Position numbers and translations under genes: made by a program. 59,501 nt of DNA from a virus (taxonomy: Duplodnaviria > Caudoviricetes). The notes beneath the pieces were generated by a model that worked only from the letters and a program-made list of their open reading frames with translations, ran no database searches and had not been told where the DNA came from. Within the stretch, counting starts at the first letter, position 1. The number at the start of each line of letters is the position of its first letter. Below, in pieces: positions 14,102 to 35,011 of the stretch. Location of the stretch: positions 1-59,501 of the IMG/VR virus record IMGVR_UViG_3300025889_000128; one strand, given 5' to 3'.

Positions 14102-15084
14102 TATTCTTCTACGTTATCCATGCCTTTCTCATTTAATATATATTCTGCATCTGCCATAGCATACTCTGGGCTATCTACCATTCTTGCTATTCTTTTCTTA
14201 CCAGATTTCTTGAAGTATATTCTATGAGTGCTTGCATGACCTACAACATTACCACCAATAGGTTTGATTGGATCACCGAACATTGTTGATGGATCACTTT
14301 GTACTTGATTGGTAAAGATAACTGTGCACTTAAAATAATAAGTAATGTTCTTCAAGTGTGTCATTAATCTTTTGATTTGATTCTGTCTATCTGCTAAAGT
14401 ACCCCTACCCAAATACTCTTCTCTGAACTGTCCAATAGCACCGTCAATTATTACTAATCTAGGCTTGAAATCAAGCATAGTTTTTGATAGATTATTAACA
14501 GTACCCATAAGCAATTCAGTGTTAGGAGTGTAGAAATACTTTATTCTTTGTAGCATTTCTTTTGCTTGTTCTTTATCTTCAACGTATTCTCTAGCCTTTA
14601 GTATCTCAAATATCCTAGCAGGTCTAAATGTATCTTCACAATCAATCCATATCACATTGTCTCCACCATGTATGGCTTCAACAGTTAATGAATTACAGAA
14701 TTGTGTTTTACCTGAACCAAACTCACCATATACTTCGTAAGTTGCCTCTGGTTTTACACCCCCACCCATTAGGTTATCAACTTCTTCACACTTTGTTCCA
14801 AGTGTAGGATAATTTTCTTGATAATCCATCAAGTCTAATGTATCCATGTCGGACTTTCTAATGTAACCATTATCTTCAAGCAATCTTTGAGCATTAAATG
14901 ACCATTGATCTGCTTTCTCTCTACCGACTCCAGTAATTTCTGCAATCTCAGCAGAACCTCTTACACAAATATCAAGTATAGTATTGACACCAAAAGCATT
15001 TAATTTTTTTTCAGTGACAGCACCAACACCATCTAATTGTGAAACTTTTAAATCGATAGGTTGTTCTTCTACAATTTCGTCCAT
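14101..15084 (-). CDS. radA: DNA repair and recombination protein RadA
   Basis: N-terminal HhH (LDGVG), GEFGSGKTQ, WIDCEDTFRPARI, EYLGRGTLADRQ, TNQV, KPIGGNVVGHAST. Confidence 0.97.
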   Translation of the reverse strand: MDEIVEEQPIDLKVSQLDGVGAVTEKKLNAFGVNTILDICVRGSAEIAEITGVGREKADQWSFNAQRLLEDNGYIRKSDMDTLDLMDYQENYPTLGTKCEEVDNLMGGGVKPEATYEVYGEFGSGKTQFCNSLTVEAIHGGDNVIWIDCEDTFRPARIFEILKAREYVEDKEQAKEMLQRIKYFYTPNTELLMGTVNNLSKTMLDFKPRLVIIDGAIGQFREEYLGRGTLADRQNQIKRLMTHLKNITYYFKCTVIFTNQVQSDPSTMFGDPIKPIGGNVVGHASTHRIYFKKSGKKRIARMVDSPEYAMADAEYILNEKGMDNVEE

Positions 15085-15108: not shown

Positions 15109-17061
15109 TTATGCCTTTCGGTATGTTCCGTCATTGTTTAATCTTACATGATTAAACTTTTCCCAGTTACCGAATAGTTTCTTTGCTTCTATTGGTTCAA
15201 ATCCATTGTCAATTAGTTTCTTCATAAACTCTACCAAGTTTACTTTGCCATTTGCATCTTCACATTCTGACCATGTTCTCTCTGCTAGTTGTTGTTTGTT
15301 TTCTTTGGTAGTTCCACCAAGAACTGATTGTCTATTACCAGAGTTCATAGTTATGTTGAATGAAGTATACATTGATTCAATCAAATCTTTAACTTGCATG
15401 ACATCTTCTATCTCTATAAAGTCTTTCAACTTTAACTTGGCAAGTGCATAAGACAATCTAACTAATGCTTCTAATTGTCTAGTACCTACAGGTAACTCAT
15501 CATTGTTAGATGTTGATCTCATTGTATTGTATATTTTTATTATCTCATTCTTCAAATCATCTGTAAGTTTTGGCTTCTGTGCTCTTGCTAAGTTTATCAA
15601 ACATACTAACTCATTCTCTGTTAATGGTATCTTTTTCTTCTCAGCAGGGTTTGATACAAAAGAATCTATGATATGACTAGCCTTTAACATATCTTCTGTG
15701 ACATTAACTGTATCTCTAATCAACCATATCAAATCAAACCTTGACAATAATGGTGCAGGTATATCTACATTGTCTCTTAATGTAGCACTTGAATCATAAG
15801 CACCATACTTTGGATTTGCTGCTGCTAAAATTGTAGTCTTTGTAGGTAGTGTTAATACAATACCTGCCTTAGCAATAGATACTGTTTGTTGTTCCATAGC
15901 CTCATGCATAGCACTTCTATCATCTTTACTCATCTTATCAAACTCATCAATAAATGCAAAGCCACCAGAACATAATGGCAATACACCTGCCTGTGCTACA
16001 AACCTTTCATTAATTTTAACGATAGCAATAGTAAGACCTGCTGCACTTGAACCTCTACCAGAAGTATAGATTGATTTCTTTGTAATCTTCTTTGCATACT
16101 TTAATAGTTCTGACTTTGCCATTGATGGATCGCCAACTAGAAAGATGTTAATATCAGAACGTCTAGCACCCTCAACACCTCTAACAAGTTGTAATAATAT
16201 TGACAACTTTATGTCTCTCATACCATAGATATTGGGTGCAAAACTACTAACTAATGAGTCAAGATAATCAGTATCCTGTGCCATTAATCTGAACTTCTTT
16301 TCGTCTTCATTAGATGGTAGTATATCTTCATCATCTTCCAAGTTATTTATTGCAAGTACATCAATGTAAACATCATTCTCATTTTCATTTACATCTATTA
16401 TCGACCTGAATATACCAGTGATTCTTTTCTTCTGTCCAATAAATGCAGTGCTCACATCATCACCATAGACTTTACCCATAAACAATACAGGACTACTGTG
16501 AACTGCTTTCTCTAATTGTTCTTGTAAGAATAAAGTTTGAACATCATCTGTTACTAAACTTTCTGGTCTAAATATCATCTTTGCTTTCTTACATGCAGGG
16601 TTACTACATACTGGTACTACAATCTTCTTTTCTATGTCACACTTTATTTGTTGTTCATTGAAACAACTATGACATACTGCGACTCCACTTTTAACATAAG
16701 TTTTAGGTGCATCTGTTGCAGATATAACACAATCAAAAGTAATAACTGTGTTCTCATAGTCAGAATTAATATCATGCATCTCAACTAATGAACTACCAAC
16801 TAATTTTATTTCCAAGTCTTTGAATGTAGTTGGTACATCAATCTCATCATACTGTTCACCAAGTATTTGATACAATGCATGTCTTACTTTCTCTTTGAAT
16901 CCAGTAGGATCTAAACCAAATACTTCTGAGAAATCATTAGACTCAATATCTAATGTGTATATACTGTTGGGTTTCAGTGATGATATTATCTTAGCATTAG
17001 TTGGTGATGATAATTTTGCATAAATAATATCACTGATTGCTGACTCTGTATATCCATTCAT
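15109..17061 (-). CDS. mcm: MCM replicative helicase
   Basis: CxxC...CxxxxC zinc finger, GDPSMAKS, IDEFDKM, HEAMEQQT, AAANP, SRFD. Confidence 0.97.
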   Translation of the reverse strand: MNGYTESAISDIIYAKLSSPTNAKIISSLKPNSIYTLDIESNDFSEVFGLDPTGFKEKVRHALYQILGEQYDEIDVPTTFKDLEIKLVGSSLVEMHDINSDYENTVITFDCVISATDAPKTYVKSGVAVCHSCFNEQQIKCDIEKKIVVPVCSNPACKKAKMIFRPESLVTDDVQTLFLQEQLEKAVHSSPVLFMGKVYGDDVSTAFIGQKKRITGIFRSIIDVNENENDVYIDVLAINNLEDDEDILPSNEDEKKFRLMAQDTDYLDSLVSSFAPNIYGMRDIKLSILLQLVRGVEGARRSDINIFLVGDPSMAKSELLKYAKKITKKSIYTSGRGSSAAGLTIAIVKINERFVAQAGVLPLCSGGFAFIDEFDKMSKDDRSAMHEAMEQQTVSIAKAGIVLTLPTKTTILAAANPKYGAYDSSATLRDNVDIPAPLLSRFDLIWLIRDTVNVTEDMLKASHIIDSFVSNPAEKKKIPLTENELVCLINLARAQKPKLTDDLKNEIIKIYNTMRSTSNNDELPVGTRQLEALVRLSYALAKLKLKDFIEIEDVMQVKDLIESMYTSFNITMNSGNRQSVLGGTTKENKQQLAERTWSECEDANGKVNLVEFMKKLIDNGFEPIEAKKLFGNWEKFNHVRLNNDGTYRKA

Positions 17062-18766: not shown

Positions 18767-19000
18767 ATGGTAACGGTAGACTTTAGAGCATTTGGAAAGG
18801 GTGAAGCAGGTATATACTATGGCTCTAGTGAAAGAATACTTGTATATTTAAACAACCATGAATCATTAACAGATATACTTAAAACTATACAACATGAATT
18901 AATTCATCATTGTATTGCAAAATGCGATGAAGATATGGACGAAGACCAAGAAGAAAAAACAATTTATTTTATGTCTTGGGCTGAAGAATTTTTAATTTGA
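18767..19000 (+). CDS. Minimal HExxH metallopeptidase-like protein
   Basis: AGIY...ILVYL...TIQHELIH...EE. Confidence 0.6.
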   Translation: MVTVDFRAFGKGEAGIYYGSSERILVYLNNHESLTDILKTIQHELIHHCIAKCDEDMDEDQEEKTIYFMSWAEEFLI

Positions 19001-19285
19001 TTGTACATATACCAGTGCATTTGTACCACTTTCTAGTTGAACTTCTATCTTTTTATAATAATCTGTTTCGTATCTATCCAATATTTTTATCTCTTCTTCT
19101 GTAACATCTAAAGTCATACCATCGACATGATCTTCTTTACTTTCTATTATGTTTGGATATGGTAATATATCATGTATTGTTAGTTTGTAACCAAGTAATC
19201 TATCTCTAGTTGAGTTTGGAAATCTATCAAGTAACCTGTACCTTAATTCAGGTATTATTAATGAACCATATACAAATATTATCAT
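18992..19285 (-). CDS. Gamma-glutamylcyclotransferase (AIG2/GGACT family)
   Basis: IFVYGSL, YPNI, VDG, LDRYE..Y, ALVY. Confidence 0.88.
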   Translation of the reverse strand: MIIFVYGSLIIPELRYRLLDRFPNSTRDRLLGYKLTIHDILPYPNIIESKEDHVDGMTLDVTEEEIKILDRYETDYYKKIEVQLESGTNALVYVQSN

Positions 19286-19743: not shown

Positions 19744-19988
19744 TCAATACATGTTTTGCCCTTATCTATTTCTTTTTGACCTAGATATTTGCCACACTTA
19801 TCACACTTTACATATACAGGGTTTTCTTTCGTGCTATTCTCGCGTACAATTTCTACTGCTCTTAGATACTTTTTTAGAGAATTTTCATCTCTATCATCAA
19901 AGTCGTTTGGTTTGGAAACTGACATTGGACTCCATATTTTTTCTTCAATATGTATAATTTTTTTGATTAATTTCTCTCTATCATTCAT
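19719..19988 (-). CDS. Hypothetical protein with C-terminal CxxC-CxxC
   Basis: CDKCG...CIEC; ATGA overlap with the VWA gene. Confidence 0.7.
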   Translation of the reverse strand: MNDREKLIKKIIHIEEKIWSPMSVSKPNDFDDRDENSLKKYLRAVEIVRENSTKENPVYVKCDKCGKYLGQKEIDKGKTCIECLGENWF

Positions 19989-21670
19989 TTCATTGACCTT
20001 ATAATCATCTGTTTGAAGTCTTTAATAACTCTTTCTGTAACACCTGTAAAGTTGGATACTTGTATGAATCTTTTCTTTCCAAATATTTCTTCCATAGTTT
20101 GTCTTGGAGTAGTATTATCTCTACTGTTCTTTAACAATATACATGTGATGTTATTTGTTTTTCTTCTTGCCTTTTGTAATGACTTCTTACACATTCTTAT
20201 CATCTGTGCATCACCTAGCATATACTTTCTACTTCGATATTCTGGTCTACCATCAGTAATCATTATCAAAAGTTTTCTATGTCCTTTCATCTTGTCTAAT
20301 TGTAATGCAGAATATTCAAGTGCTAAATGTGTAGGTGTAAGACCATATCCATTATACATATTTATCATATTTGTATCCTTGATATTTCTTATATCTGTAA
20401 TTCCAACATCACCCATAGCATTTGACGACCATACATTTACTTGTATATCAATACCTCTTACATTCTCAACTGACTTCATCATTGTATAAGCCAAGTTTCT
20501 TGCCTTAGTCATATTATCATCATAATACATTGAACCAGATCCATCAATAGATAGAACAACTGATACACCATTATCTGTTCTTTGTTTGTTCATAACTTTC
20601 GTTACGTCCTTACCTGTTATCTTGTTTTCAATGTATGATTCAATATTAACATCTTCACCATCATAGTCAATACTATCCGTCTTTGCTTCTTGTAAAGTTC
20701 TAAGGAATTTTTTTATATTTTTTCCTAATCTTTCATCATATTCAGGCTTTACTGTCGGTCTAAGGATTAGTTTATACTTTCTATTTAATTGAGGTTGTTG
20801 TGTGTTTGTCTTATCTGCGATAATAATAGATATTTGTTCCATGTCTTCTTCAAATTCTACTTTATCATCAGCAACTAATTTTTCTAATGTTTCAATATCA
20901 GTTTTTCCATCATTAGTTTTTTCCTGTGCAGTATCCTCAAAAATCATTTCATAAGTTAACACCTTACCATCTTTACTTATCTGTGGTCTTGTTGTTTCCT
21001 TACTATAATCTTGAAAGGTTGATCTGTTAGGTTGTTCTATGTTTGGCATGTATGCATGTCTTGTTGTGTAATCATCATACCATTCATCAAGTAATGGTTT
21101 TATCTTACAAAGTAATTTATATGCACCCATTCTACCTGTTCCCTCAACCACTTTCAATACATTCTGAAATGTTTCTTTTCTTTTACTAGTAACTAACTCA
21201 TCTCTGTAAAATCTTATTGCTAGTAATTCAGAAACAGGATCACCGTTAGAACAATCTGTCATATCAGTACCCAATTTTTTTCTAGTCTTCAGAAATCTAT
21301 CTTTGTTGGCTTTCCATAGATTCATTATAAAGTATTCAATTCGTTGATCTTCTATGATATTAAATGCATACCAATACATATTGAATCTATCTTTACTACC
21401 TTTAGACCATTGAGTTAATCTTCCCTTTGCTTCTAATATAGGTGACTTGCCTAACAAATGTCCACACTCATGTGACAATGCTGTTATTCTTTGTATGTGT
21501 TTTCTAGCAGGGCTAGATATGTTCATTCTATATTTGGTCTCACGCCATTGAACATAGTTTTCATCATTGAAGTTTGTGAGTTCGATTTTTTTTCCTATTA
21601 TATGCTCTACAATATCGGTTACTTGTCTAAAGTATTCGTTATCAGAGAGTATATCTCTGTCTCTTGCCAT
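19985..21670 (-). CDS. CobT/NorD-like protein: HExxH domain plus C-terminal VWA
   Basis: HECGH and FNIIEDQRIE at the N-terminus; MIDAS DGSGS, GLTP and ITDGRP. Confidence 0.85.
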   Translation of the reverse strand: MARDRDILSDNEYFRQVTDIVEHIIGKKIELTNFNDENYVQWRETKYRMNISSPARKHIQRITALSHECGHLLGKSPILEAKGRLTQWSKGSKDRFNMYWYAFNIIEDQRIEYFIMNLWKANKDRFLKTRKKLGTDMTDCSNGDPVSELLAIRFYRDELVTSKRKETFQNVLKVVEGTGRMGAYKLLCKIKPLLDEWYDDYTTRHAYMPNIEQPNRSTFQDYSKETTRPQISKDGKVLTYEMIFEDTAQEKTNDGKTDIETLEKLVADDKVEFEEDMEQISIIIADKTNTQQPQLNRKYKLILRPTVKPEYDERLGKNIKKFLRTLQEAKTDSIDYDGEDVNIESYIENKITGKDVTKVMNKQRTDNGVSVVLSIDGSGSMYYDDNMTKARNLAYTMMKSVENVRGIDIQVNVWSSNAMGDVGITDIRNIKDTNMINMYNGYGLTPTHLALEYSALQLDKMKGHRKLLIMITDGRPEYRSRKYMLGDAQMIRMCKKSLQKARRKTNNITCILLKNSRDNTTPRQTMEEIFGKKRFIQVSNFTGVTERVIKDFKQMIIRSMK

Positions 21671-22569
21671 TATACAGTTACACCAAATATCTCATGGATT
21701 CTGGTCTTAATAAGTTCTCGCTCTTCTATCTCTGAAAACTTTGTTACAATGACTTGTTTCAAAGTATTCTTCAATGAACTTATGTCACTTAAATGATTAG
21801 ATAACAATCTGTAATAATCACAGAATTGATCTATGTCTCTAGGTGATAAGACATAATCCACATCACCTTTCATTCTTAGTGCATGTATTTCAGTAGCCAA
21901 TGTAAGAAGTTCTTTCTTGGTATCATCTGGAATATCTGTCCAATTAGTGATTCTTTCTAAATCACTTTCTTTTGGATATTCAATGATGTCACCAATCATT
22001 CTACTTCTCAAGTCTTCTGTCAATGAGTTAACACCTGCGTATGTTACAGGGTTCATAGTTCCCACTATGATTAACCTACAACCTTGATTTAGTTTGTATG
22101 TTTTTCCATTTGCAATAACAGAACGTCTCTTATCGAATGGTCTATTGAATAGTTTCATTACTTCATGTTGAGTAGAGTTTAACTCATCAAGATATAGACA
22201 ACATGTTTTGTAGTGATTTGCAACTTCATAGGCTATTGGTAATACACCTAACTCAAAGAATGAACCACTCTCGTTAATCTGTATCCTACCAAGTAAGTCA
22301 TTTCTAGTAGTATTCATACTACATGAAAACTCTACTAATGGAATACCTAATTGTCTACATACAGTATGTACCATCAAAGTTTTACCTGTTCCTTTGTCAC
22401 CCTCTAACAAGTATGGAGTGTTACCAAATTTCATGTTAAGTTCTAGTAACATCATCTCGTCTTTGATAGGAATATATGTACCCCAATCATCTTGTATGGC
22501 AGGATTATACTGTTCCATATCAACATAGGCAGTTGGAATTTTAATTATGTTACTTTCTTTCTTGGTCAT
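21670..22569 (-). CDS. MoxR/CobS/CbbQ-like AAA+ ATPase
   Basis: GDKGTGKT, LYLDELN, GTMNP..YAG, DLRSR, SPR. Confidence 0.9.
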   Translation of the reverse strand: MTKKESNIIKIPTAYVDMEQYNPAIQDDWGTYIPIKDEMMLLELNMKFGNTPYLLEGDKGTGKTLMVHTVCRQLGIPLVEFSCSMNTTRNDLLGRIQINESGSFFELGVLPIAYEVANHYKTCCLYLDELNSTQHEVMKLFNRPFDKRRSVIANGKTYKLNQGCRLIIVGTMNPVTYAGVNSLTEDLRSRMIGDIIEYPKESDLERITNWTDIPDDTKKELLTLATEIHALRMKGDVDYVLSPRDIDQFCDYYRLLSNHLSDISSLKNTLKQVIVTKFSEIEERELIKTRIHEIFGVTV

Positions 22570-22737: not shown

Positions 22738-22887
22738 CTAATCACACTCCCATTTTACTATGCCTTGTGTGGTATTTCTTTTCTGTTGTCTTGCTGTGCT
22801 GTGCCATTCCTCATGTCTTTTCTTAGATATGAGAATCAATGCATCACCCTCATTAAAGATCATTCCACATAGATTACATTTAACCAA
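22738..22887 (-). CDS. C2H2-like zinc-finger microprotein
   Basis: CNLC-x17-HEEWH. A TTG start at 22887 overlaps the upstream stop and matches the paralogue at 30140. Confidence 0.6.
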   Translation of the reverse strand: MVKCNLCGMIFNEGDALILISKKRHEEWHSTARQQKRNTTQGIVKWECD

Positions 22888-23816: not shown

Positions 23817-23860
23817 AATTGTAATACGTTGAACTTGTATATAAGTCGATCTTTGATTAA

Positions 23861-23906
23861 TTCAGATTAATTCCGTAAGTTTCAGATTTAATCTGTAAGT
23901 TTCAGA
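23861..23906. repeat. 2.3 tandem copies of a 20-bp unit
   Basis: ttcagattaattccgtaagt / ttcagatttaatctgtaagt / ttcaga. Confidence 0.8.
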
Positions 23907-23916
23907 AAAGAAAATA

Positions 23917-24099
23917 AATACAGTAGGTAGGCGTGCCTGTTCTTCAATGAGCCACAAGCCCATTCTGAAAACGCCTCGTTCGTAAGTTATGTATCTCTGT
24001 CTTTTTTTTTTTGAACTTGAGCATGTAGTAATCGTACATGAATTACCTCAAGTCCTCTCTCGTCAATTCGAGCACATTGAGATCCTACTGTATTACAGT
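23917..24099 (-). ncRNA. Putative structured non-coding RNA (~180 nt)
   Basis: TATA tttaaata at 24128-24121 with no ATG at the usual spacing; 11-bp closing stem; four internal helices, two with G-U pairs that form only on the minus strand; U-rich tract at the 3' end. Confidence 0.65.
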
Positions 24100-24255
24100 A
24101 ATACTATTACTCTCTTATAGTATTTAAAGGTATATTTGATTTTTTTATTTTATTTTTTTTATTTTTTTTACTCGCGTACAAGTTACATTATGTCGTGTAC
24201 GACTCCATAACCGAACTGTTTATATACCCTTACATTCACAGGGCTCACAAAAAAA

Positions 24256-24732
24256 TTACTTGAACCAATCGGGTGCTGACCGATTAGTCCATTTGGCAAA
24301 GCCATGTTTCTCATGGATATAGTATTGTCTATAAGCCTCATGTGGATCATCACACTTATACTTATCAGGCATAGCCATAACAAACTTTGTCATTGGTGTA
24401 AGTGGAATGTTAGGATAAGGTAATGATGCAATAATATCCCATGACTTATGATTGACTTGTCTATTGTATCTAAACTTATACTCTTCATTCAATGCACTAG
24501 CATGTCTAACTAACCATAAATAATTAGACATGGACATGCCTGTCCATAGTGTGCATGGGTGATTAGCATGTGTCATTTTATAGGGTATGTCATACTTGAC
24601 ATTTCTATTAGGATATTTGTGATGGACGGTACAAATAATTTGTGCTGACTCTAGTATCATTTTGACAACATGCTTGTCACACATTTGTAAAGCCGAACCT
24701 TTTGGGCTTGGTGATAATGCGAATATGTTCAT
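24256..24732 (-). CDS. Pyrimidine-dimer DNA glycosylase/endonuclease V-related protein
   Basis: MNIF.L...DKHVVKMILESAQ...TH.NHPC..W...NY.WL...EY..RY...HKS...AMPD...AYR.YY. Start set at MNIF. Confidence 0.75.
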   Translation of the reverse strand: MNIFALSPSPKGSALQMCDKHVVKMILESAQIICTVHHKYPNRNVKYDIPYKMTHANHPCTLWTGMSMSNYLWLVRHASALNEEYKFRYNRQVNHKSWDIIASLPYPNIPLTPMTKFVMAMPDKYKCDDPHEAYRQYYIHEKHGFAKWTNRSAPDWFK

Positions 24733-24752
24733 AACAATAAAACACACTCGCA

Positions 24753-25073
24753 CTATTTAAGACTTGCTTTGATTGATTTGAGTGTCTCTCTCAATTCAAT
24801 GTAGTCGGCTATCCATGATAGAGAACGTCCATTCTCTACCATGAGCCATATCATACGAGACAGTTTTCTGTTATTAATCCCACAAGTTAATAACAACTTT
24901 CTCATACTAAGTCTAGTAAAACTAGACGGTAAAGAATGGACAGCGTAAGGGCTTGTATATCCTACTACTTCAGCAAGTGCTAGATAAGGACATTGATAAG
25001 AATATACTTTCTTATCTGCATCTCTCAATGCTTGTATAATATATTCTGTATCACTCATCTTGCAATACCTCAA
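24753..25073 (-). CDS. Hypothetical protein
   Basis: In the leftward operon; start may be MSDTEY. Confidence 0.6.
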   Translation of the reverse strand: MRYCKMSDTEYIIQALRDADKKVYSYQCPYLALAEVVGYTSPYAVHSLPSSFTRLSMRKLLLTCGINNRKLSRMIWLMVENGRSLSWIADYIELRETLKSIKASLK

Positions 25074-25338
25074 GTAACTCTTTCATGTGTCGGCATGTGT
25101 TTCTGTATCTATATCCAATACAATCACATACCCATACATTGTTATCCTTTGAGAGTATGTGTGAAGAGTTTGGATCACTCTTCGAATCACATTGGTATAT
25201 CATAGTATCAATTTGTTTTATCATCTTGATCTATTCCTCGTTATGTTCATACAGTTATCTATACCGTTTAACTCACATTCACTACACTTAACTGTTTGTT
25301 TAAAGTAGTGCTCGAAAGGTTTTCGGCATGTTCTACAT

Positions 25339-25683
25339 TTACTTATCAAGTCTATCACCTCGCTTGTTTCGTCTCGCTCTTCTCTCTCTATCTTGTTGCA
25401 TCTCAATATCTGTAACTGCAAAGTAGATTAGATTACTATACTCTAGTATTGCTTTCTTGTCTCTCATGTGATATTCTCGTATAAGTAACAATGGTATATC
25501 GTCCCATCTTATCTTACCTTTACGTCTATCAGATAAGTCTTCAAGCATCTCACCAAAAGTTTGAGTGAAAAAGATAGCATCATCTTTTTCATACTCAACT
25601 TTCTTTAGTATGTTATACGAAATCAATTCCTCAATCAAGATAATAGTTTTCTTATCATCTTTATTATTCAATCGTTTCGTCAT
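25339..25683 (-). CDS. Hypothetical protein
   Basis: ATGA overlap with the GATase gene. Confidence 0.7.
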   Translation of the reverse strand: MTKRLNNKDDKKTIILIEELISYNILKKVEYEKDDAIFFTQTFGEMLEDLSDRRKGKIRWDDIPLLLIREYHMRDKKAILEYSNLIYFAVTDIEMQQDRERRARRNKRGDRLDK

Positions 25684-26465
25684 ACGTTACCACCTTTGAG
25701 AGTGTCCCATAGATAACCATAGTCATCATAGTCCAGATCGGGATTTGTTTTCATGTCCTTATCATCAAACTCATCATCACTATCAATATCCCATTCATCT
25801 GTCCAGAAGTTATAGGCTTGCTTGGATTTCTTTTTCTTATTCTTTTTATCTTTCTTTTTACTGAAAGAAAAAGAATAAGGGCTTGGCATTTCTTTTTCTA
25901 TCTTTGGTACAAAGTAGTTGTTACTACATGTGTGACCATCAACGGTTACCCAACCGTCACCAAACTTATGAATACCTTTGGCATCTAATACAGTTATCTT
26001 ATTACCTTTGATAAGGTTTAAGATATTGTAACCGTATCTGTTAGCTAGCACTGCCATCGCTCTACTATCTGACCATGATGCACCATCTGGTACTGCAAGC
26101 TCACCAGATATAACACCATTCATTAGATGCTCATTCCATTCTGACCATGTACCATTATGGAATAACACTGCATCTGCATCACCAGATAATGCTAAGCCAC
26201 TGTTATCCTCGATAGGGAATGGGTGACATAGTTCTGGTTTGACAGAGCCAACTGATGCAATACGAAAGTGGATTATAGCAGGTAACTTAATCACACCTGT
26301 CTCAATCATGGTAATGATCTCTTCAGCATCTAGGTTTTTTCTGTAAGATACAGAACCAAACTCGTTAATCCATGCGACACCTGCACCATGAGAGTTAAGA
26401 GCTTCAGCACTTCTAAGAGTATCTGGTTTTGGGAATGAGTCTTCAGCTAGTATGATAACGCACAT
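25680..26465 (-). CDS. Class II (Ntn) glutamine amidotransferase
   Basis: N-terminal MC, NSHGAG, HFRIASVG, CHPF, FHNG, SDSR. Confidence 0.9.
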   Translation of the reverse strand: MCVIILAEDSFPKPDTLRSAEALNSHGAGVAWINEFGSVSYRKNLDAEEIITMIETGVIKLPAIIHFRIASVGSVKPELCHPFPIEDNSGLALSGDADAVLFHNGTWSEWNEHLMNGVISGELAVPDGASWSDSRAMAVLANRYGYNILNLIKGNKITVLDAKGIHKFGDGWVTVDGHTCSNNYFVPKIEKEMPSPYSFSFSKKKDKKNKKKKSKQAYNFWTDEWDIDSDDEFDDKDMKTNPDLDYDDYGYLWDTLKGGNV

Positions 26466-27673
26466 TATACTAACACCTCACTTACATATACAGGCTCTTC
26501 AATGTTATCTGCAAGGTATGAGTTAACAATGTCAATGAACTCAATGATAGCACTTTTTGCTATACGAGGCTCGTTGAATGTTGGTAAGAGTCTTGACTCT
26601 AATGTACCATGCATTGAATAGCAGTAGTTCAAGAATGAGTATCTTGATTGCTCTCTATATCTTGCTTTGTATTGTCTCAATGGATTGAATCGCTTCTTAG
26701 CATAGTAGCAATTACCATCTAGTCTATTCCAGAATCGTGAGCCCTCATTGATATTGTTACGCATACCCCATTCGTTATAACGTTTGAGATAATAGTTCCA
26801 GAACTTTTTGCTCATCAATTTACCATAAGACAAGTGGTTACCATTAGTGGAAATATGCACATGTATTCCACAACTTGAATCCATCTTATCTGGGTAATTA
26901 TTATCAACCCATCTCTCTAATGCTTCTTGATTAACAGGCTCGCTGTGTATCTCACCCTTAGCTGGACGACAACCACAATCATCATCACTATCATGTGGAC
27001 ATTGAGGAGTTACACTTAATGATACTGATCCATCATTGTATATACCATTTGGTGGTATTAACCAACCACCCTCAATCTCAACACCAGCTAATCCTACACC
27101 ATCAAGTTGTTTAACTATCATACCATCTGACATAATGATACAACCGTTATACTTTTGCTTGAGTTTCTTTAGTTTCTTTAACTGTTTTGCTATTTGGGAA
27201 TTGTATCTTAAATGTGATTCATTGTCAATACCATATAATGCTAGACCATAAGCCCTAGATATATCAATTAATGCACTAACAGTAGCATCAATTAGATCCT
27301 TTCTAATGGTTTGGTATTTCATTTCAGGTATTACACAATCATATATAGTCTTAGCAGTTGGGTGTGTGCTAAACATATATGGGATTGATACTTTGCCCGA
27401 TACACCATTAACATATACATCACCTTTTATAGAAACACTCTCATCTGATATGCTTGTTAACATATATGAGGAACTGAATCTCATACTATGAGATATATCA
27501 GATAAGCGTGATGCATTTGAAGAGATACATTTCAAGGCATTAGATAAGAATGTGGATTTTCTTGTTACTTCTAATCCTTTGGCAGTACGCTCAATGGTAA
27601 TACTAAAGTCCATTTCTGGAATTTCAGCGTTACACATTTGGGTAGCCATTTGTAATTGAACTGAATCGCTCAT
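26465..27673 (-). CDS. Putative amidoligase (COOH-NH2 ligase type 2, GS/GCS fold)
   Basis: GVEIEG, DGSV, EIHSEP, SCGIHVHIS, RYSFLN, TLESRL. Confidence 0.85.
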   Translation of the reverse strand: MSDSVQLQMATQMCNAEIPEMDFSITIERTAKGLEVTRKSTFLSNALKCISSNASRLSDISHSMRFSSSYMLTSISDESVSIKGDVYVNGVSGKVSIPYMFSTHPTAKTIYDCVIPEMKYQTIRKDLIDATVSALIDISRAYGLALYGIDNESHLRYNSQIAKQLKKLKKLKQKYNGCIIMSDGMIVKQLDGVGLAGVEIEGGWLIPPNGIYNDGSVSLSVTPQCPHDSDDDCGCRPAKGEIHSEPVNQEALERWVDNNYPDKMDSSCGIHVHISTNGNHLSYGKLMSKKFWNYYLKRYNEWGMRNNINEGSRFWNRLDGNCYYAKKRFNPLRQYKARYREQSRYSFLNYCYSMHGTLESRLLPTFNEPRIAKSAIIEFIDIVNSYLADNIEEPVYVSEVLV

Positions 27674-28082
27674 ACAATCAAAACGCTTTCATCATATATA
27701 AGTCGATCTTTGATTAATTTCAATTCGGATTTTGTCAAAGTCAACAATAATCGAGCCCTGAACCAATAGGGATTAATAAACAGTTCTACCATAGGCAATA
27801 ACAACATTAAATGTCATATAACGTAACGATTTGATTCGACAAAATACACGCCATACATGGCGAGCATGGATATAAAAACAGTTCGGTCACGTCCGTAACT
27901 ACAAATTTTTTTTTTTTTAATTTTAAAACATATAACACTCACGCCTAATCACTCGCGTACAACTCAGCGAGCGAACTCTTTATATATCCCTACCAACGAT
28001 AGAACTCTTTATATATCCTTACTCGCAATAGAACTCTTTATATATCCTTACATGGGCGTGGTCATTAAAAAAATAGTGGGTG

Positions 28083-28316
28083 CTACCACTCTGTATCGCA
28101 CTCTGGTTCAGAGCATGCTACTAGTTCACAATAGTAGTTACCATTCTTTTGTTGATAGTAACCACCTTTAAGTGTCCCATCATACTTATCACCATCTTGT
28201 TTTAACAACTTGATAACTTCAGAAAGTCCACCTAGTGCATCTTTCTTGTTACCATACATACTGTTGTTATCGGGAATACACCCACAGAGTCCATTAATCA
28301 CGTGGTAATGAAACAT
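28083..28316 (-). CDS. Cassette gene, hypothetical
   Basis: Own motif-A promoter and downstream T-tract. Confidence 0.8.
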   Translation of the reverse strand: MFHYHVINGLCGCIPDNNSMYGNKKDALGGLSEVIKLLKQDGDKYDGTLKGGYYQQKNGNYYCELVACSEPECDTEW

Positions 28317-28435
28317 AATACTAATACATCGTAATCATATATAAACATAGATTTGATTGTTATATAACCATGTAATGTAGGGATATATAAACAGTTTGTT
28401 TACCTGTAATAAAAAAAGTGGGATTGATAGGCTCA

Positions 28436-28672
28436 CTATAATTCTAAGTGTGCTACTTTATCAATTTCCCCTTGGAGATATACTTCATTGACACTTTTAA
28501 TGTCAATGCCTGTAACACCTTTAAAGTTCAATTTCTTGATGCCTAAAGGTATTTGTTTGTTACCTGCATTACTGACATCAGATGGTAATAGTCTAGCCAA
28601 TTTGACTAATGCAACTATTACGTCTCTTTGACATTTGGTCAATTCTGCTTGGTATGCTTTTACATCAAACAT
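28436..28672 (-). CDS. Cassette gene, hypothetical
   Basis: Own motif-A promoter and T-tract. Confidence 0.8.
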   Translation of the reverse strand: MFDVKAYQAELTKCQRDVIVALVKLARLLPSDVSNAGNKQIPLGIKKLNFKGVTGIDIKSVNEVYLQGEIDKVAHLEL

Positions 28673-28857
28673 ATTATACTATGTGTCGTTATGATATATA
28701 AACATGTATTTGATTAATTTTTTTATTTTTTTTAACCACGCCTTTACTATACTATATTACTCGCGTACATGTCCGTACAACCAAACTCTTTATATAGCCT
28801 TACTAAAATCGAACTGTTTATATACCCTTACTTTTGCCTGCCATAATAAAAAAAAGG

Positions 28858-29055
28858 CTAGATGAGCCCGTAGTAGTGTTTAACACGATTAACCATCTTG
28901 CTACTTGTTCGGCTCGGTTTGTATTCACTAAGTATTTTCTTAGTGGCTAATTCAATTTCAATAATCTTAGTGCCATAATGAAAACAAGTTACTATACCCT
29001 CATTTTCAATGACAGCAGATTCCTTGACTAATTGAATGTCTCGAATCATGTTCAT
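28858..29055 (-). CDS. Cassette gene, hypothetical
   Basis: Promoter spacing of 21 nt places the start at 29055, not 29064. Confidence 0.8.
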   Translation of the reverse strand: MNMIRDIQLVKESAVIENEGIVTCFHYGTKIIEIELATKKILSEYKPSRTSSKMVNRVKHYYGLI

Positions 29056-29210
29056 ATTATACATAATACGTTATCATATATAAGATTAGATTTGATTAAT
29101 TCTCTATACTATACCACACAAAACCCACAAACAAAAACCCCCCTCGCTCGCGTACAACAGGAATGAGTAGGGATATATAAACAGTTTGTTTCAGGCAAAT
29201 AAAAAAAAGG

Positions 29211-29429
29211 TTACTGTGATAATGCTCTAAGAAGTCTTTGGCTTCTCAAGTGTGCATTATCTTTGTTTCTGGTCAAGTCAGCCATGAGTTTATCTTGTTC
29301 TGCATCGACATCAAGAACTAAAACCTCACATGAGCCGTTAAGCCAGTGCAAGGTTAGGTTGTCGAAGACAGAATAAGTTAAAGTCTCAAAGACGACTTCT
29401 CCACATTCTGGACATGTTAGACCAATCAT
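29211..29429 (-). CDS. Cassette gene with CPECG motif
   Basis: Own motif-A promoter and T-tract. Confidence 0.8.
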   Translation of the reverse strand: MIGLTCPECGEVVFETLTYSVFDNLTLHWLNGSCEVLVLDVDAEQDKLMADLTRNKDNAHLRSQRLLRALSQ

Positions 29430-29604
29430 TAACTATCTTATGTTGTTATAATATATAAAGTGAGATTTGATTAATTTGATTAGTATACTATACCATAAGA
29501 AACCAATTAAAGCCCATGGAATTAGTAAGGATATATAAACAGTTTGGTAAGGGCAGAACTCTTTAAATATCCCTACAATACCTGTTTCTAATAAAAAAAA
29601 AGTC

Positions 29605-29949
29605 TCATGGCTCTAGCCATGGGTTGCGACTCATCATAGCATCTTCAATCGCATAGTCTTCGATTGCTTCAATGCTCAAGTCTTTGTATTCTGGGTTATT
29701 CATCATCTGGTCGATTCTGTCACAAGCAGTAAGGCGATCTTTGCCCTCTGTCTCGTCCCATTCTTTGGCAAGTTCTCTGTAAGTCTTGCCTGTGGCTTCG
29801 TCAATTTGGTCAAGCCATGAACAGGATTCATGCCATGCACCAAATCCACTTAACCATTTGATGAGTTCACCCCTGCGAATACTTCCATCACAGATTTTAC
29901 AAACGCCTCTGTATTTGGAAGAAAAAACGCGTGTTTGATTCCATCTCAT
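29605..29949 (-). CDS. Cassette gene with N-terminal zinc finger
   Basis: SKYRGVCKICD...WHESC; own promoter. Confidence 0.8.
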   Translation of the reverse strand: MRWNQTRVFSSKYRGVCKICDGSIRRGELIKWLSGFGAWHESCSWLDQIDEATGKTYRELAKEWDETEGKDRLTACDRIDQMMNNPEYKDLSIEAIEDYAIEDAMMSRNPWLEP

Positions 29950-30139
29950 AGTATAACTAATGTCTTATAGTATATAACCCCCACTTTGATTAATTGCAAG
30001 TCCCCCCCAGAACTAGGTATTGTAAGGCTATATAAACAGTTCTATTCACTATCGCTCGCGTACAACTATTCAATCAAACTCTTTATATACCCTTACATGT
30101 GAGGTATATGATAAAAAAAATGGTGACGACCATTGATGA

Positions 30140-30277
30140 TTACTCATCAATGAACACAGCATCACCAATGATACAGTTTGTACCATAACGTAAATGATAA
30201 TCCTTATGTCTATTGACTCTTATCAAAAACAAAGAGTCATTCTTGTCAAAAGATTGACCACACAAACTACATATCAT
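30140..30277 (-). CDS. Cassette gene, 45-aa C2H2-like zinc finger (not in ORF track)
   Basis: MICSLC-x17-HKDYH; ATG 21 nt from promoter copy 30299. Confidence 0.8.
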   Translation of the reverse strand: MICSLCGQSFDKNDSLFLIRVNRHKDYHLRYGTNCIIGDAVFIDE

Positions 30278-30394
30278 AAAATCAATACGTCCTCATTACA
30301 TATAAACATAGATTTGATTAATAATACGCCCTAACACTCGCGTACGAATATTTGGAGTAGGGATATATAAACAGTTCTGTAATAATAAAAAAGA

Positions 30395-30658
30395 TTAGTT
30401 GTTAGCTTGGTGTTTTGCTATATCATCTTTGAGTTTCTCAAAGACAGTTTCAACCAAACTAATGTTCTTTAAGATGTCGTCAATTCTAAAGTCGTCATAC
30501 ACGACAAATGTATTGCCTTGCATGCGAACTGCAATCGACTCAATCAACTTGGCACACATCTCAACACTTCCTTGGTTAAAGGTTGTGTGTAAGTATCCCT
30601 CTTTGCTGATTGGTGGCATCTCGTAAGATTTACCATTGAATGAGAACTTGTGGTTCAT
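30395..30658 (-). CDS. Cassette gene, hypothetical
   Basis: Own motif-A promoter and T-tract. Confidence 0.8.
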   Translation of the reverse strand: MNHKFSFNGKSYEMPPISKEGYLHTTFNQGSVEMCAKLIESIAVRMQGNTFVVYDDFRIDDILKNISLVETVFEKLKDDIAKHQANN

Positions 30659-30816
30659 AATAGGAATAAGTCGTTATAGTATATAATACTTACTTTGATT
30701 AATTCCATGCATCAGTAAATCGAACTGTTTAAATATCCTTAGATGATTGAATCTCGTTTCTATACTATAAATTAATCAAAGATAGTGTTAAATACTATAA
30801 CAACTAAACTCTATTA

Positions 30817-31098
30817 ATGCAAAGTTCAGAAGAGATGAACATGGTATATAAAGCCATCAAAAACGCTTTCGATACCAGAGATTCACAATTCGAATCGAGT
30901 AGATTGAACGGTGAGTTCAGCATCAGAACCGATGCACCTTGCCAAGCAGTTCAAATCACTCCAAAAAGTAACGAACATCACATCGACAAAACCCTTTGTG
31001 ATTTAGTTACTGGAGTTCTTCAGCAATTTTGTGCCGTCAGTTTTTGGTTAAGAACCGATTATGACGACAACAAAACTGTTGTAATGAGAATCTCCTAA
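30817..31098 (+). CDS. Cassette gene, hypothetical (divergent orientation)
   Basis: Motif A on the plus strand, 22 nt before the ATG. Confidence 0.8.
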   Translation: MQSSEEMNMVYKAIKNAFDTRDSQFESSRLNGEFSIRTDAPCQAVQITPKSNEHHIDKTLCDLVTGVLQQFCAVSFWLRTDYDDNKTVVMRIS

Positions 31099-31258
31099 AC
31101 CCCCCATTTCTTTATTTTCAACATTTCCACAGTGTAGGACACTCGTATTAGGGCGACCAAGTAAATACAGAAAAAAACTGTAATTTTCAGGTTTCCCAGA
31201 TACAAATCCGAATACAACTCGGCACAAGATTTAATAACTATTCCCTCGTATACAAGTC

Positions 31259-31585
31259 ATGGGGGAGACAATAATCCAAGCAAGGCAAATACTCATCAAA
31301 GAACACACATTACCACCATTAACAGTAGCATATCTACCATCACCAACATTCTTTCAAGATTTTATGAAAGAAGCTGGGACAGATGAAGAACTCCTTACCC
31401 TAATAACAACCATAACAAGAATACGAAAAAAGAAAATAACACATGTAGCACTATACATACCAAACGAAGAATTTGAGCAAAGGCTCTCTCCAGAGGAAAT
31501 GGAGTTTTACATATCCCTCAGAGATGCAGGGAAAAAATTAGCAAACCTTACCTGTATTCCTCAAGAACTTCAGGATTTCTCCTAG
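31259..31585 (+). CDS. Hypothetical protein
   Basis: 108-aa ORF with an upstream AT-rich TATA-like element. Confidence 0.65.
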   Translation: MGETIIQARQILIKEHTLPPLTVAYLPSPTFFQDFMKEAGTDEELLTLITTITRIRKKKITHVALYIPNEEFEQRLSPEEMEFYISLRDAGKKLANLTCIPQELQDFS

Positions 31586-31718
31586 TAAAATCCAATAGTT
31601 TCTTCAAGTCGTTATAATCATCTTCATCAAGCAGGTGCTTGTTCCATTTTAATCCACAAAATATGCAGGGGGAATGAAACATAAAAAAAGCCATTATATC
31701 GTATTCGTCTCTATTCAT
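31548..31718 (-). CDS. 56-aa CxxC protein (not in ORF track)
   Basis: PCIFCG...KH; ATGA overlap with 31715-31909. Confidence 0.5.
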   Translation of the reverse strand: MNRDEYDIMAFFMFHSPCIFCGLKWNKHLLDEDDYNDLKKLLDFTRRNPEVLEEYR

Positions 31719-31909
31719 TTGGCATCAGGGGTAGGTTCTTTTTTGGCATCTAATACATAGGAAGCCTGTATTCTGAACATACATTTCATCAATTCCCTAG
31801 TATTAAACTTTTTAGACCTATCCTTTGTGTGATTTATAAACTGTTTGCCACAGGCTATACACACAGTACTTTCCAAGTTCTTTCTAGTAATAAGAGAAGA
31901 TTTCTCCAT
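31715..31909 (-). CDS. Zinc-binding hypothetical protein
   Basis: CIACG...H...C. Confidence 0.65.
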   Translation of the reverse strand: MEKSSLITRKNLESTVCIACGKQFINHTKDRSKKFNTRELMKCMFRIQASYVLDAKKEPTPDAK

Positions 31910-32125
31910 TATACAAGACTATCCCATTCCATCTTATATTGCTTTCGGAGTTTTTCGGGATTTGGTAGGCGTTTGGAACGCTTATACATGTGCCATGAAA
32001 GAATTAAACCGATAGGGGTAAAAACGAGCGAGCACACAAGAAACGTCAAAACTGCGACTTGCCACGTTTTTACCATGCCTTATACACGCCTGCGACCTTT
32101 ATAAATGTGTCGGAAAAATTTTTTC

Positions 32126-32280
32126 GGGTGCTTCGCACCCTCGATTAATTCCCAAAAGGAAAGGGGTAAATCTTACGTGTTTACCCACTTGCGACCTGCA
32201 AGAACGAGTCTAAGAGGGCTACCGAAGTTGCGAAGTAGCAAAGTAGGTAATCCCTGACGACTATCATATAGTAGGTTGTC
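32126..32280. other. Non-coding hairpin cluster
   Basis: gggtgc-ttc-gcaccc; gggtaaa/tttaccc; cttgc/gcaag; gctac/gtagc; gacgac..actat/atagt..gttgtc. Confidence 0.6.
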
Positions 32281-33049: not shown

Positions 33050-35011
33050 ATGGGCTTTAGAGACTATCTAACCAACGTAAGCAAGGCTTTTATTAATAAA
33101 TCTAATACCGAAACTACAGTTAGACCTAGTATTACAACCCCATATATGAGTACCGATACAGGTGCAAAGTTACCTATTTTCCCATTCCCACTGATGATGA
33201 TTTACGAATTAGCAGATAATATTGATGCATTAAGAATACCTATTGAGACAATTAATAGAGAAATGTTTAAGAATGGATTCGAAATTGTGGAAAAATGGAA
33301 GTATAAATGCGAGAATTGTGGTAAAGAGTTCCAATATGCACCAACTATTGATGATAAACCAGATGAACAACCATTTGAGCAGAACCAAGATAACGAAACA
33401 AATGCAATTCCAAAAGCAAAGGCAATTATTGATGAATCACAGTTACAATGTGATACATGTGGCAATACAAACCTAAGACGACCAGTACCAGAACACAGAT
33501 TAATACTTGAAAACCTTATTACAAAACCAGTAAATGGAAACCAACAAACACTTGAAGATTTAGCAAGACAGTTGGAAAGAGATTTGGAAATTGCAGATAA
33601 TGCATACTTGTTAGTGTTGAAACAGTATAATATCAATGATAGAACTGGTGAAATTAATCACGATCAATCCGAAATCAAAGAGTATCTTAGAATAGATCCA
33701 CCACAGGTAGCCATGATTTGCGATTCTGATGGTAGATTGGGATATAACGACAAACACGAACCTATATTTGTTTGTCCATACTTTGAACATAGAAGAACTA
33801 GACTCCACAAAGATACATGTGAAAAAACAGATGATGGAGTTCATAGTAATCCAGTTAAAGCCCTAAAGGCATTGATTGAAGTAAATGCTGTTTATTCGAT
33901 TGGTACTCCACAACCAAAGTCAGTAATTTATGGAGAGGGTGAAGTTGTTTGGAAAGCAGGTAAATACAAGCCATCATTAGTATATGGATTCTCCCCTATT
34001 TATGCTGTATGGTCTAAAGCCATGACATTATCTCACATGGACGAATATGTTAGAAAGTATTTCGATAAAATGAGACCACCAAGAGGTATGTTGGTTATTG
34101 CATCAAGAAACTATGAGACATTTAGAAAATCATGGGGTGAACTTGAGATGAGAGCAGCAGAAGATCCTTATATGATTCACCCATTGATGGTAGAATCTGA
34201 TAAAGGTGGAAAGAACATGGCACAATGGATTGATTTCACTGGATCATTAAGAGAATTAGAATTTATTGAAGTTAGAAAGGAATTAAGACAACTAATTGGT
34301 GCAATTTATGGTGTCTTACCACTCTATTTCGGTGAAATGGTAGGTGGGTGGTCACAAGAGGGATTACAAGTTACAATTACAAACAGAGCAGTAAAATGGG
34401 GACAAGACATACTATCAAAGGCATTTTTCGATAAAATTGCAGAGATGTTGAATGTAGATGATTGGCATTTAAGATTAAAAGGTGGAGAAGAAAACGACAA
34501 ACTCAGAGAACTACAAACTGATGGTGTTGAAATTCAAAACATGGCTATTCTACAACAAATGGGCTTTGATATTACCAGAACTCACACTGGAGAGTTCAAA
34601 GTAAGCAAAGAAACTGCATTAAGTGCAAGTGATATGATGATGAATGACATGCAAGCAAGAATGGGTAGAGGTAGAGGAACTGCATCTCCAAAAGAAAATA
34701 GACAAAATATGCAAGGTGAACCATTACAAACTAGACCATCTGATATGGGTGGAGTTAGTCAAGGATTCCCTGCAAGTGGTTCTGGTACTACAATGTCAAA
34801 GAAAGCATACAATGACGGTATTACTCCAGATAACTTTGATGTTATCAAATCATTACTACAAACTGCTGTAAATTATGATTGGAATAAGGGAAAAATGGTA
34901 GATGAACTAAGAAAACAAGCAGGTATGACAGTTAGACAAGCAAGAGATTTAGTTAAAAACGAATTAAGTATGGTAAAAAGATGGGAAGACGTTGACGAAG
35001 AAAAATCATAA
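33050..35011 (+). CDS. Portal protein with zinc-ribbon insertion
   Basis: DLEIADNAYL, YGFSPI, YF....PPRGML and IGAIYGV.P portal-like motifs; CENC...CDTC insertion; first large gene of the head module. Confidence 0.85.
   Translation: MGFRDYLTNVSKAFINKSNTETTVRPSITTPYMSTDTGAKLPIFPFPLMMIYELADNIDALRIPIETINREMFKNGFEIVEKWKYKCENCGKEFQYAPTIDDKPDEQPFEQNQDNETNAIPKAKAIIDESQLQCDTCGNTNLRRPVPEHRLILENLITKPVNGNQQTLEDLARQLERDLEIADNAYLLVLKQYNINDRTGEINHDQSEIKEYLRIDPPQVAMICDSDGRLGYNDKHEPIFVCPYFEHRRTRLHKDTCEKTDDGVHSNPVKALKALIEVNAVYSIGTPQPKSVIYGEGEVVWKAGKYKPSLVYGFSPIYAVWSKAMTLSHMDEYVRKYFDKMRPPRGMLVIASRNYETFRKSWGELEMRAAEDPYMIHPLMVESDKGGKNMAQWIDFTGSLRELEFIEVRKELRQLIGAIYGVLPLYFGEMVGGWSQEGLQVTITNRAVKWGQDILSKAFFDKIAEMLNVDDWHLRLKGGEENDKLRELQTDGVEIQNMAILQQMGFDITRTHTGEFKVSKETALSASDMMMNDMQARMGRGRGTASPKENRQNMQGEPLQTRPSDMGGVSQGFPASGSGTTMSKKAYNDGITPDNFDVIKSLLQTAVNYDWNKGKMVDELRKQAGMTVRQARDLVKNELSMVKRWEDVDEEKS

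Follow-up and report, generated by a model that had tools for sequence, protein, structure and literature searches.

The window analysed here is the whole of the IMG/VR virus record IMGVR_UViG_3300025889_000128 (59,501 nt; linear, 33% G+C, completeness estimate 95%), and our subject is an array of small single-gene cassettes at 27.7-31.1 kb, in which each gene has its own predicted promoter (promoter A) and the spacers carry two further repeats, box B and motif C. The array holds eight small open reading frames (ORFs) of 45-114 aa. Seven are on the minus strand: c77 (28083-28316, 77 aa, Cys-rich), c78 (28436-28672, 78 aa), c68 (28858-29064, 68 aa), c72 (29211-29429, 72 aa, with CPEC close to the N-terminus), c114 (29605-29949, 114 aa, with a CxxC), c45 (30140-30277, 45 aa, zinc-finger-like) and c87 (30395-30658, 87 aa). 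Only p93 (30817-31098, 93 aa) is on the plus strand. An earlier reading of this DNA (the sequence-only reading) had placed the array at coordinates that hold, while the orientation of its genes is corrected to the one given here. It had also described eight unrelated units, each with a promoter and a T-tract. Pairwise comparison of the eight proteins found no pair similar at E<1 and the promoters were present, whereas a T-tract was found in seven units and not in that of p93. Searches with the cassette proteins gave only sub-threshold matches in Pfam and only families of unknown function in PHROGs; their look-alikes in the Atlas were viral clusters without names, and none of the eight had an informative family match.

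On the strand of the gene, promoter A reads TTAATCAAA, 7 nt and TTATATA. A search of the whole window with TTAATCAAA-N7-TTAWATA, with at most two mismatches, gave 13 matches where 1.17 were expected, a number reached in 0 of 100 shuffles. Twelve of the 13 lie within 23838-30794 and nine within 27.7-30.8 kb. The element is not specific to cassettes, and is also located in front of the g402 operon, of g165 (24754), of a unit at 23838 and of an ORF-less unit at 24121; this predicted promoter is a general leftward class. The ATG lies 21-22 nt past the end of the TATA box in eight of ten units, p93 included (22 nt), and in nine of ten when the second ATG of c68 is counted. For c68, the distance is 12 nt from the listed start and 21 nt from an in-frame ATG 9 nt downstream, which is likely the true start; for g165 it is 0 nt from the listed GTG, which is probably not the real start. 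A TATA-to-ATG spacing of 21-22 nt is that expected of leaderless archaeal mRNAs. On the 3' side, a run of 6-9 T was found within 20 nt of the stop codon in eight of the ten units; it is absent for g402, the first gene of its operon, and for p93, which is followed by a T-rich stretch only, with no run of at least 5 T. The plus-strand structural genes (upstream of 33050, 36564, 40981, 43028, 49932 and others) also look leaderless, with AAACTTTAWATA or ATTTAAATA located 22-24 nt before the ATG, and since their promoters are without the TTAATCAAA element, the presence of two promoter classes is suggested.

Box B is a 20-nt TATA-containing repeat of the spacers. When the whole window was searched with GTAGGGATATATAAACAGTT (at most three mismatches), 16 matches were found against 0.01 expected, and 16 was reached in 0 of 100 shuffles. 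Fifteen copies are within 27766-30742 and one is at 24214; seven are in plus and nine in minus orientation. The copy closest to the terminator lies 10-16 nt from the T-tract in eight of eight cases of the window, irrespective of its orientation, and relative to the adjacent gene three of these eight copies are in plus and five in minus orientation. Tandem copies are spaced by 28-30 nt. Box B lacks arms in the repeat output, and no attC-like hairpin or dyad was seen, no dedicated fold of box B having been run. Written as AACT[C/G]TTTATATA-CCCTAC, it resembles the plus-strand promoters of the portal gene (33050) and of the genes at 36564 and 40981, which consist of AAACTTTAWATA, then 22-24 nt, then the ATG, and because of this similarity it probably binds the TATA machinery. 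We know of no archaeal element in which a TATA-containing box is fixed behind terminators in either orientation, no literature search having been aimed at this point. Motif C, CTCGCGTAC, was found in seven exact copies (0.00 expected), all on the plus strand, five of them in the array and the others at 24171 and 19839. It is GC-rich and strand-specific, its core CGTACA is shared across lineages, and it is located 11-13 nt past the box B furthest from the terminator, or 4 nt past it behind c68.

The left border of the array is promoter A of the g402 operon (27695-27717, minus strand), with 21 nt between TATA box and ATG. Next to it is a long degenerate spacer (27718-27950), probably a decayed cassette, in which two weak box B copies (27766 and 27864) accompany a 13-nt T-run (27907-27919) and what resembles a degenerate promoter. 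The junction behind c77 (27952-28073) is made up of motif C (27952-27960), three tandem box B copies in minus orientation (27974, 28003 and 28032, 29 nt apart) and the T-tract (28067-28073). The c77/c78 spacer (28338-28417) carries promoter A of c77 (28338-28360), a plus box B (28377-28396) and the T-tract of c78 (28411-28417). Between c78 and c68 (28695-28855), promoter A of c78 (28695-28717) is followed by motif C (28760-28768), two minus box B copies (28784 and 28812) and the T-tract of c68 (28848-28855), and between c68 and c72 (29077-29208), promoter A of c68 (29077-29099) is followed by motif C (29147-29155), a plus box B (29167-29186) and the T-tract of c72 (29201-29208). The c72/c114 spacer (29452-29601) contains promoter A of c72 (29452-29474), a plus and a minus box B (29525-29544 and 29557-29576) and the T-tract of c114 (29593-29601), with no motif C. 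The c114/c45 spacer (29971-30120) has promoter A of c114 (29971-29993), a plus box B (30022-30041), motif C (30055-30063), a minus box B (30077-30096) and the T-tract of c45 (30113-30120); that between c45 and c87 (30299-30392) has promoter A of c45 (30299-30321), motif C (30337-30345), a plus box B (30357-30376) and the T-tract of c87 (30387-30392). A divergent control region (30680-30794) then contains promoter A of c87 (30680-30702, minus strand), a minus box B (30723-30742) and a plus-strand promoter A (30772-30794). The order proposed by the sequence-only reading, namely terminator, one to three box B copies, usually motif C and promoter A, was thus recovered, with the precisions that box B occurs in both orientations and that motif C is present in five of the seven array spacers. 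The partial recurrence of this order at 24171-24255, which it had also noticed, was found as described, with motif C (24171-24179), a variant of motif C (24192), a minus box B (24214-24233) and a T-tract (24249-24255) behind the gene at 24256-24753. Long T-rich runs of low complexity adjoin the junction modules at 24130-24173 and 27900-27931, and metagenome contigs are cut at both.

A portal-anchored search of IMG/VR gave 80 loci with 59-85% portal identity, none of which carried the exact motifs of the window and in which the same layout was found upstream of the portal gene; the layout is common to several lineages of uncultivated archaeal tailed viruses related by their portal. Loci L007 and L009 have 16 copies of box B in the form GTAGGGGTATATAAGATTG, all in a single orientation, the promoter upstream element CTTCAAAT and motif C variants that include CTCGCGTAC, GTCGCGTAC and CTCGTGTAC. 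The motif versions are AAGGGTATATAAAGGTT and GATAATCAAACC in L080 and L014, and TAGGGGTATATAAGCGTT and TACTAGTT in L024 and L021. All copies inside one genome share the version of their lineage, which would suggest a co-evolving binding factor, homogenisation by recombination among the copies, or both. The spacing of 10-16 nt between T-tract and box B was also found in L007 (8/8), and in L021 and L024 a single box B lies 10-14 nt from both T-tracts of convergent genes. The orientation of box B is opposite between lineages, one sense being used in 16 of 16 copies of L007 and mostly the other in L080 and L024. Loci L028 and L033 are 92% identical over the portal region, yet their promoter upstream elements differ (GGTTCTAGGTAG vs AACTAGTAAG) and their box B is of the type of L080, a locus distant by portal sequence; the regulatory "dialect" therefore departs from the phylogeny of the structural genes. 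A cluster of about nine box B copies, 28-77 nt from start to start and with no gene between them, is located at 5929-6234 of L080, so that arrays of box B are possible without cassettes.

Comparison of 20 window proteins with the 80 loci (tblastn) showed that gene content differs inside the array and is conserved around it, as the sequence-only reading had predicted. Eleven of the 12 flanking genes have a homologue in L007, in the same order and with 32-70% identity (g165, g106, g114, g261 and g402 on the left; the GINS-like gene, m56, m64, m55, m61 and m69 on the right; none for m66), vs three of the eight cassettes, which are collinear: c77 (39% identity, also in L009), c68 (44-46%) and c45 (50% over 26 residues). 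In the reverse comparison, three of the eight ORFs of the L007 array matched the window. The homologues of c45 in L007 and L080 are weak, and the L007 ORF that matches c45 fits window positions 22759-22887 (minus strand) better, with 51% identity over 43 residues; because of this match outside the array, a small zinc-finger-like gene seems to be duplicated in the window. No homologue of c78, c72, c114, c87 or p93 was found in any of the 80 loci. The only relatives of c114 were one protein cluster (92% identity) and a copy with about 50% identity on L095, a 1.7-kb metagenome contig otherwise unrelated to the window, in which it belongs to a cassette with box-B-like repeats. The exact degenerate pattern of box B matched 0 stretches among viral contigs and 12 metagenome contig stretches, each with a single match, of which only L095 is related, through its c114 homologue. 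Used as search anchors, c114 and c87 led to no further loci, the single g402 sequence led to no relatives and the g402 alignment only to five contigs already in the set, and among phage GenBank records only a 60-nt chance match was found.

Five events bounded by the motifs were mapped. The first is an insertion or deletion (indel) of a 335-nt unit (L080 6670-7004) containing a leaderless ORF of 63 aa with a zinc ribbon, present in L080 and L015 and absent from L013 and L014 in surroundings about 98% identical, so that each form is present in two assemblies. At the L014 junction, the sequence matches the left copy over promoter A, motif C and the larger part of box B, then the right copy from the end of box B, which places the crossover in the last 8 nt or so of box B; a 14-nt identical stretch of promoter A was left unused. 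The second event is the absence from L021 of a unit with a 53-aa ORF (L024 3677-3855), whose flanking box B copies are identical over 20 nt with the switch inside them, and the third the absence from L024 of a unit with a 78-aa ORF (L021 4442-5018), with the switch at box B. In the fourth, a 115-aa ORF of L021 is replaced in L024 by an unrelated ORF of 113 aa (no BLASTP alignment at E up to 100), homology stopping at the T-tract after a conserved box B and restarting at the start codon and promoter A. The fifth comes from an 8.4-kb contig of run X8 (depth 23), collinear with window positions 24174-32188 at about 98.5% identity (92 and 44 differences in two pieces), in which about 330 extra letters are located at 30313-30320, inside the TTAATCAAA element of the c45 promoter. 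Run X14 has a contig that diverges from the window at this base and continues with 583 unlike letters, and a contig of run X2 crosses the site in the form of the window; the parts of the window left uncovered by runs X2 and X4 carry no evidence of absence. The sequence-only reading had proposed to look for breakpoints in the motifs. The crossover was inside box B in three one-cassette indels, so that these breakpoints are related to the motifs, and gene content was not identical across the relatives.

From these results, we consider it probable that the array is a hyperplastic region of autonomous one-gene units, comparable to the PeSL regions of T4-type phages, in which the repeated junctions let whole genes be deleted, inserted or swapped. 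As read from the sequence, a unit has an upstream element specific to its lineage and, 7 nt further, a TATA box, with a leaderless ATG at 21-22 nt, a small ORFan and an oligo-T terminator; a junction module of one to three box B copies at 10-16 nt, often with motif C next, lies behind the terminator. The repeats would primarily be transcription signals (promoter, terminator and site for a TATA factor or regulator). Since a junction of 20-85 nt recurs in direct orientation between all genes, comparison of the relatives indicates that recombination or copy-choice between two junctions removes, adds or exchanges genes ready for expression, and a gene landing between two junctions would immediately be promoted and terminated. 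The RadA protein of the virus would be a plausible catalyst.

Several observations weigh against this reading. The screen for clean indels of at least 100 nt, carried out on all locus pairs with flanking matches at least 88% identical, gave 14 pair rows, four of which were the L080/L014 event, and detected four further clean indels in packed operons (330 nt in L049/L054 and 104-116 nt in L036/L040, L037/L051 and L068/L069/L071). These fall on boundaries between genes, share about 5-17 nt of microhomology and carry neither box B nor promoter A. L021 and L024 show five differences, among them one motif-free replacement in a packed operon and one complex rearrangement of a spacer. The presence of indels in motif-free operons indicates that turnover of small genes is a general habit of these viruses, and selection for intact genes would leave the surviving breakpoints between genes regardless. 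The integrase-free exchange through repeats proposed by the sequence-only reading is partly borne out, by the motif-bounded indels and swap and by the lack of an integrase domain, and qualified by the gene-sized indels of motif-free operons. Its early effector genes are putative, and its exchange platform may as well be ordinary regulatory repeats that recombination also uses. The motif-bounded events are few (five) and none comes from a direct ancestor-descendant pair; the insert of the X8 contig is known by its size only, its letters being unread; no close relative with the motif type of the window was found in IMG/VR or among metagenome contigs; the promoters, terminators and leaderless starts are predictions from sequence only; a simple promoter role does not account for the two orientations that box B takes in the window; and all genomes are metagenome assemblies, in which repeats can mislead assemblers, the identical cores here being just 16-20 nt.

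The motif-free indels are also what would be expected if the repeats were transcription signals and nothing else, with turnover caused by illegitimate or microhomology recombination plus selection and the junctions being the sole neutral places. That promoter A drives conserved, non-variable units as well (the g402 operon and g165) agrees with this explanation, which we nevertheless regard as unlikely. In three of the three precisely mapped array indels the switch was inside the 17-20 nt of box B although the spacers span 120-200 nt, the longer identical stretch of promoter A available in the L080 indel was not used, and turnover was much higher in the array (3/8 shared) than in the flanks (11/12) at the same divergence.

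The resemblance of box B (AACT[C/G]TTTATATA) to the promoters upstream of 33050, 36564 and 40981 raises the question of whether its copies are working promoters of the general type, producing RNA antisense to the preceding cassette or leadered transcripts of the next gene as a temporal switch, recombination being incidental. Their fixed distance of 10-16 nt to the A/T-tract would put the start site about 22 nt past the TATA box, within the tract. However, transcription from one tandem copy would begin inside another at their spacing of 28-30 nt, and a single directional role does not fit an orientation that is mixed in the window (3 plus, 5 minus) and opposite between L007 (16/16) and L080/L024, and we give this explanation little chance. 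Our best guess, within the PeSL-like reading, is that box B is an orientation-independent protein-binding site, occupied by host TBP/TFB or by a viral factor, and that the bound box would insulate the units, for example by stalling RNA polymerase on the T-tract. An orientation-independent complex is favoured because the orientation is mixed or opposite, the distance to the T-tract is constant and convergent terminators are served too.

A bolder and rather doubtful possibility is that box B and motif C together form a portable junction, a protein-bound insulator of either orientation that forces termination from 10-16 nt behind each T-tract and also a preferred crossover or cleavage point for the RadA of the virus and a nuclease, which would amount to integron-like gene capture without a recombinase. 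If so, the two box B subtypes and orientations of the window would mark cassettes that came from different donor lineages.

It is considerably less likely that box B and motif C are a dedicated recombination site, used by viral machinery other than an integrase (a nuclease plus RadA) as an integron-like capture platform. All three mapped indel crossovers are at or inside box B, toward its terminator-side edge, motif C is one-stranded (7/7 on the plus strand) with its core CGTACA recurrent across lineages, and the single lineage-specific form of box B per genome is what concerted evolution or a co-evolving binding protein would produce. Yet the sample of events is very small, the X8 event is at promoter A and not at box B, and the L021/L024 replacement is bounded by a T-tract and a promoter. 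The lack of an attC-like hairpin or dyad, the TATA core and the likeness to the AAACTTTAWATA promoters point to transcription. No match to the tyrosine or serine recombinase profiles (PF00589 and PF00239) was found in the six frames of the 59.5-kb record, while the same searches were positive in 14/14 and 12/14 control genomes; the sequence-only reading was right that no integrase is present, as far as integrase and resolvase domains are concerned. It was also right about RadA (14101-15084), but the Cas4-like exonuclease that it named corresponds to a PD-(D/E)xK match of 19 bits, below the family cut-off of 22.

That the cassette differences are assembly artefacts at repeats is highly improbable: all sequences are metagenome assemblies and the X2 and X4 contigs break in or near spacers, but the identical cores of 16-20 nt are below the usual assembly word length, two separate assemblies support each form of the L080/L014 indel, the X8 form is on a single 8.4-kb contig (depth 23) collinear on both sides and the differing segments are complete promoter-gene-terminator units. 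Two other candidates were rejected, a replication origin with iterons, as the copies occur one per gene, each tied to a T-tract, and GC skew tracks the coding strand, and mobile elements resembling miniature inverted-repeat transposable elements, as the repeat output contained neither terminal inverted repeats nor target duplications.

The rest of the window encodes a T4-type large terminase (TerL, 6161-7549), RadA and MCM (15109-17061), both on the minus strand, a MoxR-like AAA protein with its VWA partner (19985-22569, minus strand), a GINS/Sld5-like protein (31259-31585) and the portal protein (33050-35011), and the presence of the TerL, portal, RadA, MCM and GINS/Sld5-like genes indicates an archaeal tailed virus. 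The genes run leftward from about 14 kb to 30.7 kb and rightward from 30.8 kb, and GC skew parallels the coding direction. The sole hint of a host is RadA, which shares 72% identity with a copy carried by a 44-kb contig, possibly viral itself, of a metagenome-assembled genome labelled Candidatus Nitrosopelagicus; an ammonia-oxidising archaeon is a plausible host on this weak indication. Strains about 98.5% identical to this virus were found in freshwater and estuary metagenomes of several studies, and only 0.08 and 0.05 of the window words were present in RNA runs X19 and X20. Two accessory genes have recognisable domains, a GGACT/AIG2-like gamma-glutamyl cyclotransferase domain at 18992-19285 (E = 2e-15) and a pyrimidine-dimer DNA glycosylase domain at 24256-24753 (E = 7e-7). 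No Rfam family or tRNA was matched anywhere in the window. The ORF-less unit (23908-24100, minus strand) ends in a T-rich stretch and has a promoter-A-like TATA box at 24121-24143. It matches L007 1385-1590 with 79% identity over 232 nt, rising to nearly 100% in its 3' half, although the proteins encoded nearby share only about 50%. A 56-nt core of it is repeated inside the arrays of L080 (6256-6310), L013, L014 and L015, and its predicted RNA fold of -52.4 kcal/mol (z = -3.67) was equalled by 0 of 200 shuffles. This unit is a candidate for a conserved small RNA.

Comparison with known systems included integrons. Integron cassettes are small unrelated one-gene units, exchangeable between repeated junctions, which depend on an IntI integrase, attC hairpins and a shared Pc promoter. 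The array of small, unrelated, exchangeable units between repeated junctions is common to both, but no IntI-type integrase was found here, the junctions are not attC-like and each array unit has its own promoter A; the array is not an integron.

A nearer precedent is the haloarchaeal myovirus HGTV-1, in which a TATA-like motif with an inverted repeat precedes most ORFs of the left arm and was likened to PeSLs by Sencilo et al. (2013, cited in PMC3950731), with roles in transcription control and genome shuffling being suggested (PMC3950731). The idea thus has a precedent in archaeal tailed viruses, at least as it is reported there, and the array is not wholly the undescribed system that the sequence-only reading had proposed. 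HGTV-1, according to this description, is likewise an archaeal tailed virus with a TATA-containing intergenic repeat ahead of many small ORFs, but it has a halophilic host, a much larger genome and an inverted repeat in its motif, whereas promoter A and box B contain a TATA sequence and show no inverted repeat in the repeat output, the HGTV-1 motif being compared by its description only. Shuffling was suggested by analogy in the account of HGTV-1, and breakpoints were mapped in relatives here. Apart from HGTV-1, the literature searched contained no account of arrays like this one from viruses of thaumarchaea or other archaea, most subscription journals being outside its coverage.

The PeSLs, to which the sequence-only reading had aptly compared the array, are described as an early sigma-70-like promoter and a stem-loop terminator repeated in hyperplastic regions upstream of ORFans (Arbiol et al. 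2010, PMC2839356), whose recombination explains indels and replacements between close relatives and yields mini-circles (PMC2839356; Comeau et al. 2014, PMC4122927), as far as these accounts go. The intergenic repeats are similarly concentrated among ORFans here, with 15 of the 16 box B copies, motif C in five of its seven copies and nine of the 13 promoter A matches in the 27.7-30.8 kb region. Indels and replacements between close relatives are bounded by junctions (five events, and five others motif-free), a moved gene has or lands between its own promoter and terminator, and no integrase is involved. The composition is different. In the array, an upstream element precedes the TATA box, the ATGs are leaderless and the terminators are oligo-T tracts, with neither -35/-10 boxes nor G/C stem-loops, where PeSLs use sigma-70 boxes, Shine-Dalgarno sites and G/C stem-loops. 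The array also adds the strand-specific motif C and box B, which keeps a fixed distance behind the terminator, has no set orientation and often comes in tandem; the motifs differ in version from lineage to lineage. For PeSLs, promoter and terminator activity was demonstrated by experiment and excised mini-circles were detected, and the array is known from DNA alone. By analogy, the array would correspond to the PeSL in function and not in composition. The renewal of small accessory genes in archaeal viruses is barely studied, and here the unit of exchange, its boundaries and several natural events can be read from the genomes of uncultivated viruses that form a widespread group. Box B could offer a handle on insulation and termination in archaeal transcription, and the ORFan cassettes are candidates for host-takeover or counter-defence screens. 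The PeSL principle would be extended from T4-type phages to archaeal signals, with a comparative data set on which it can be tested.

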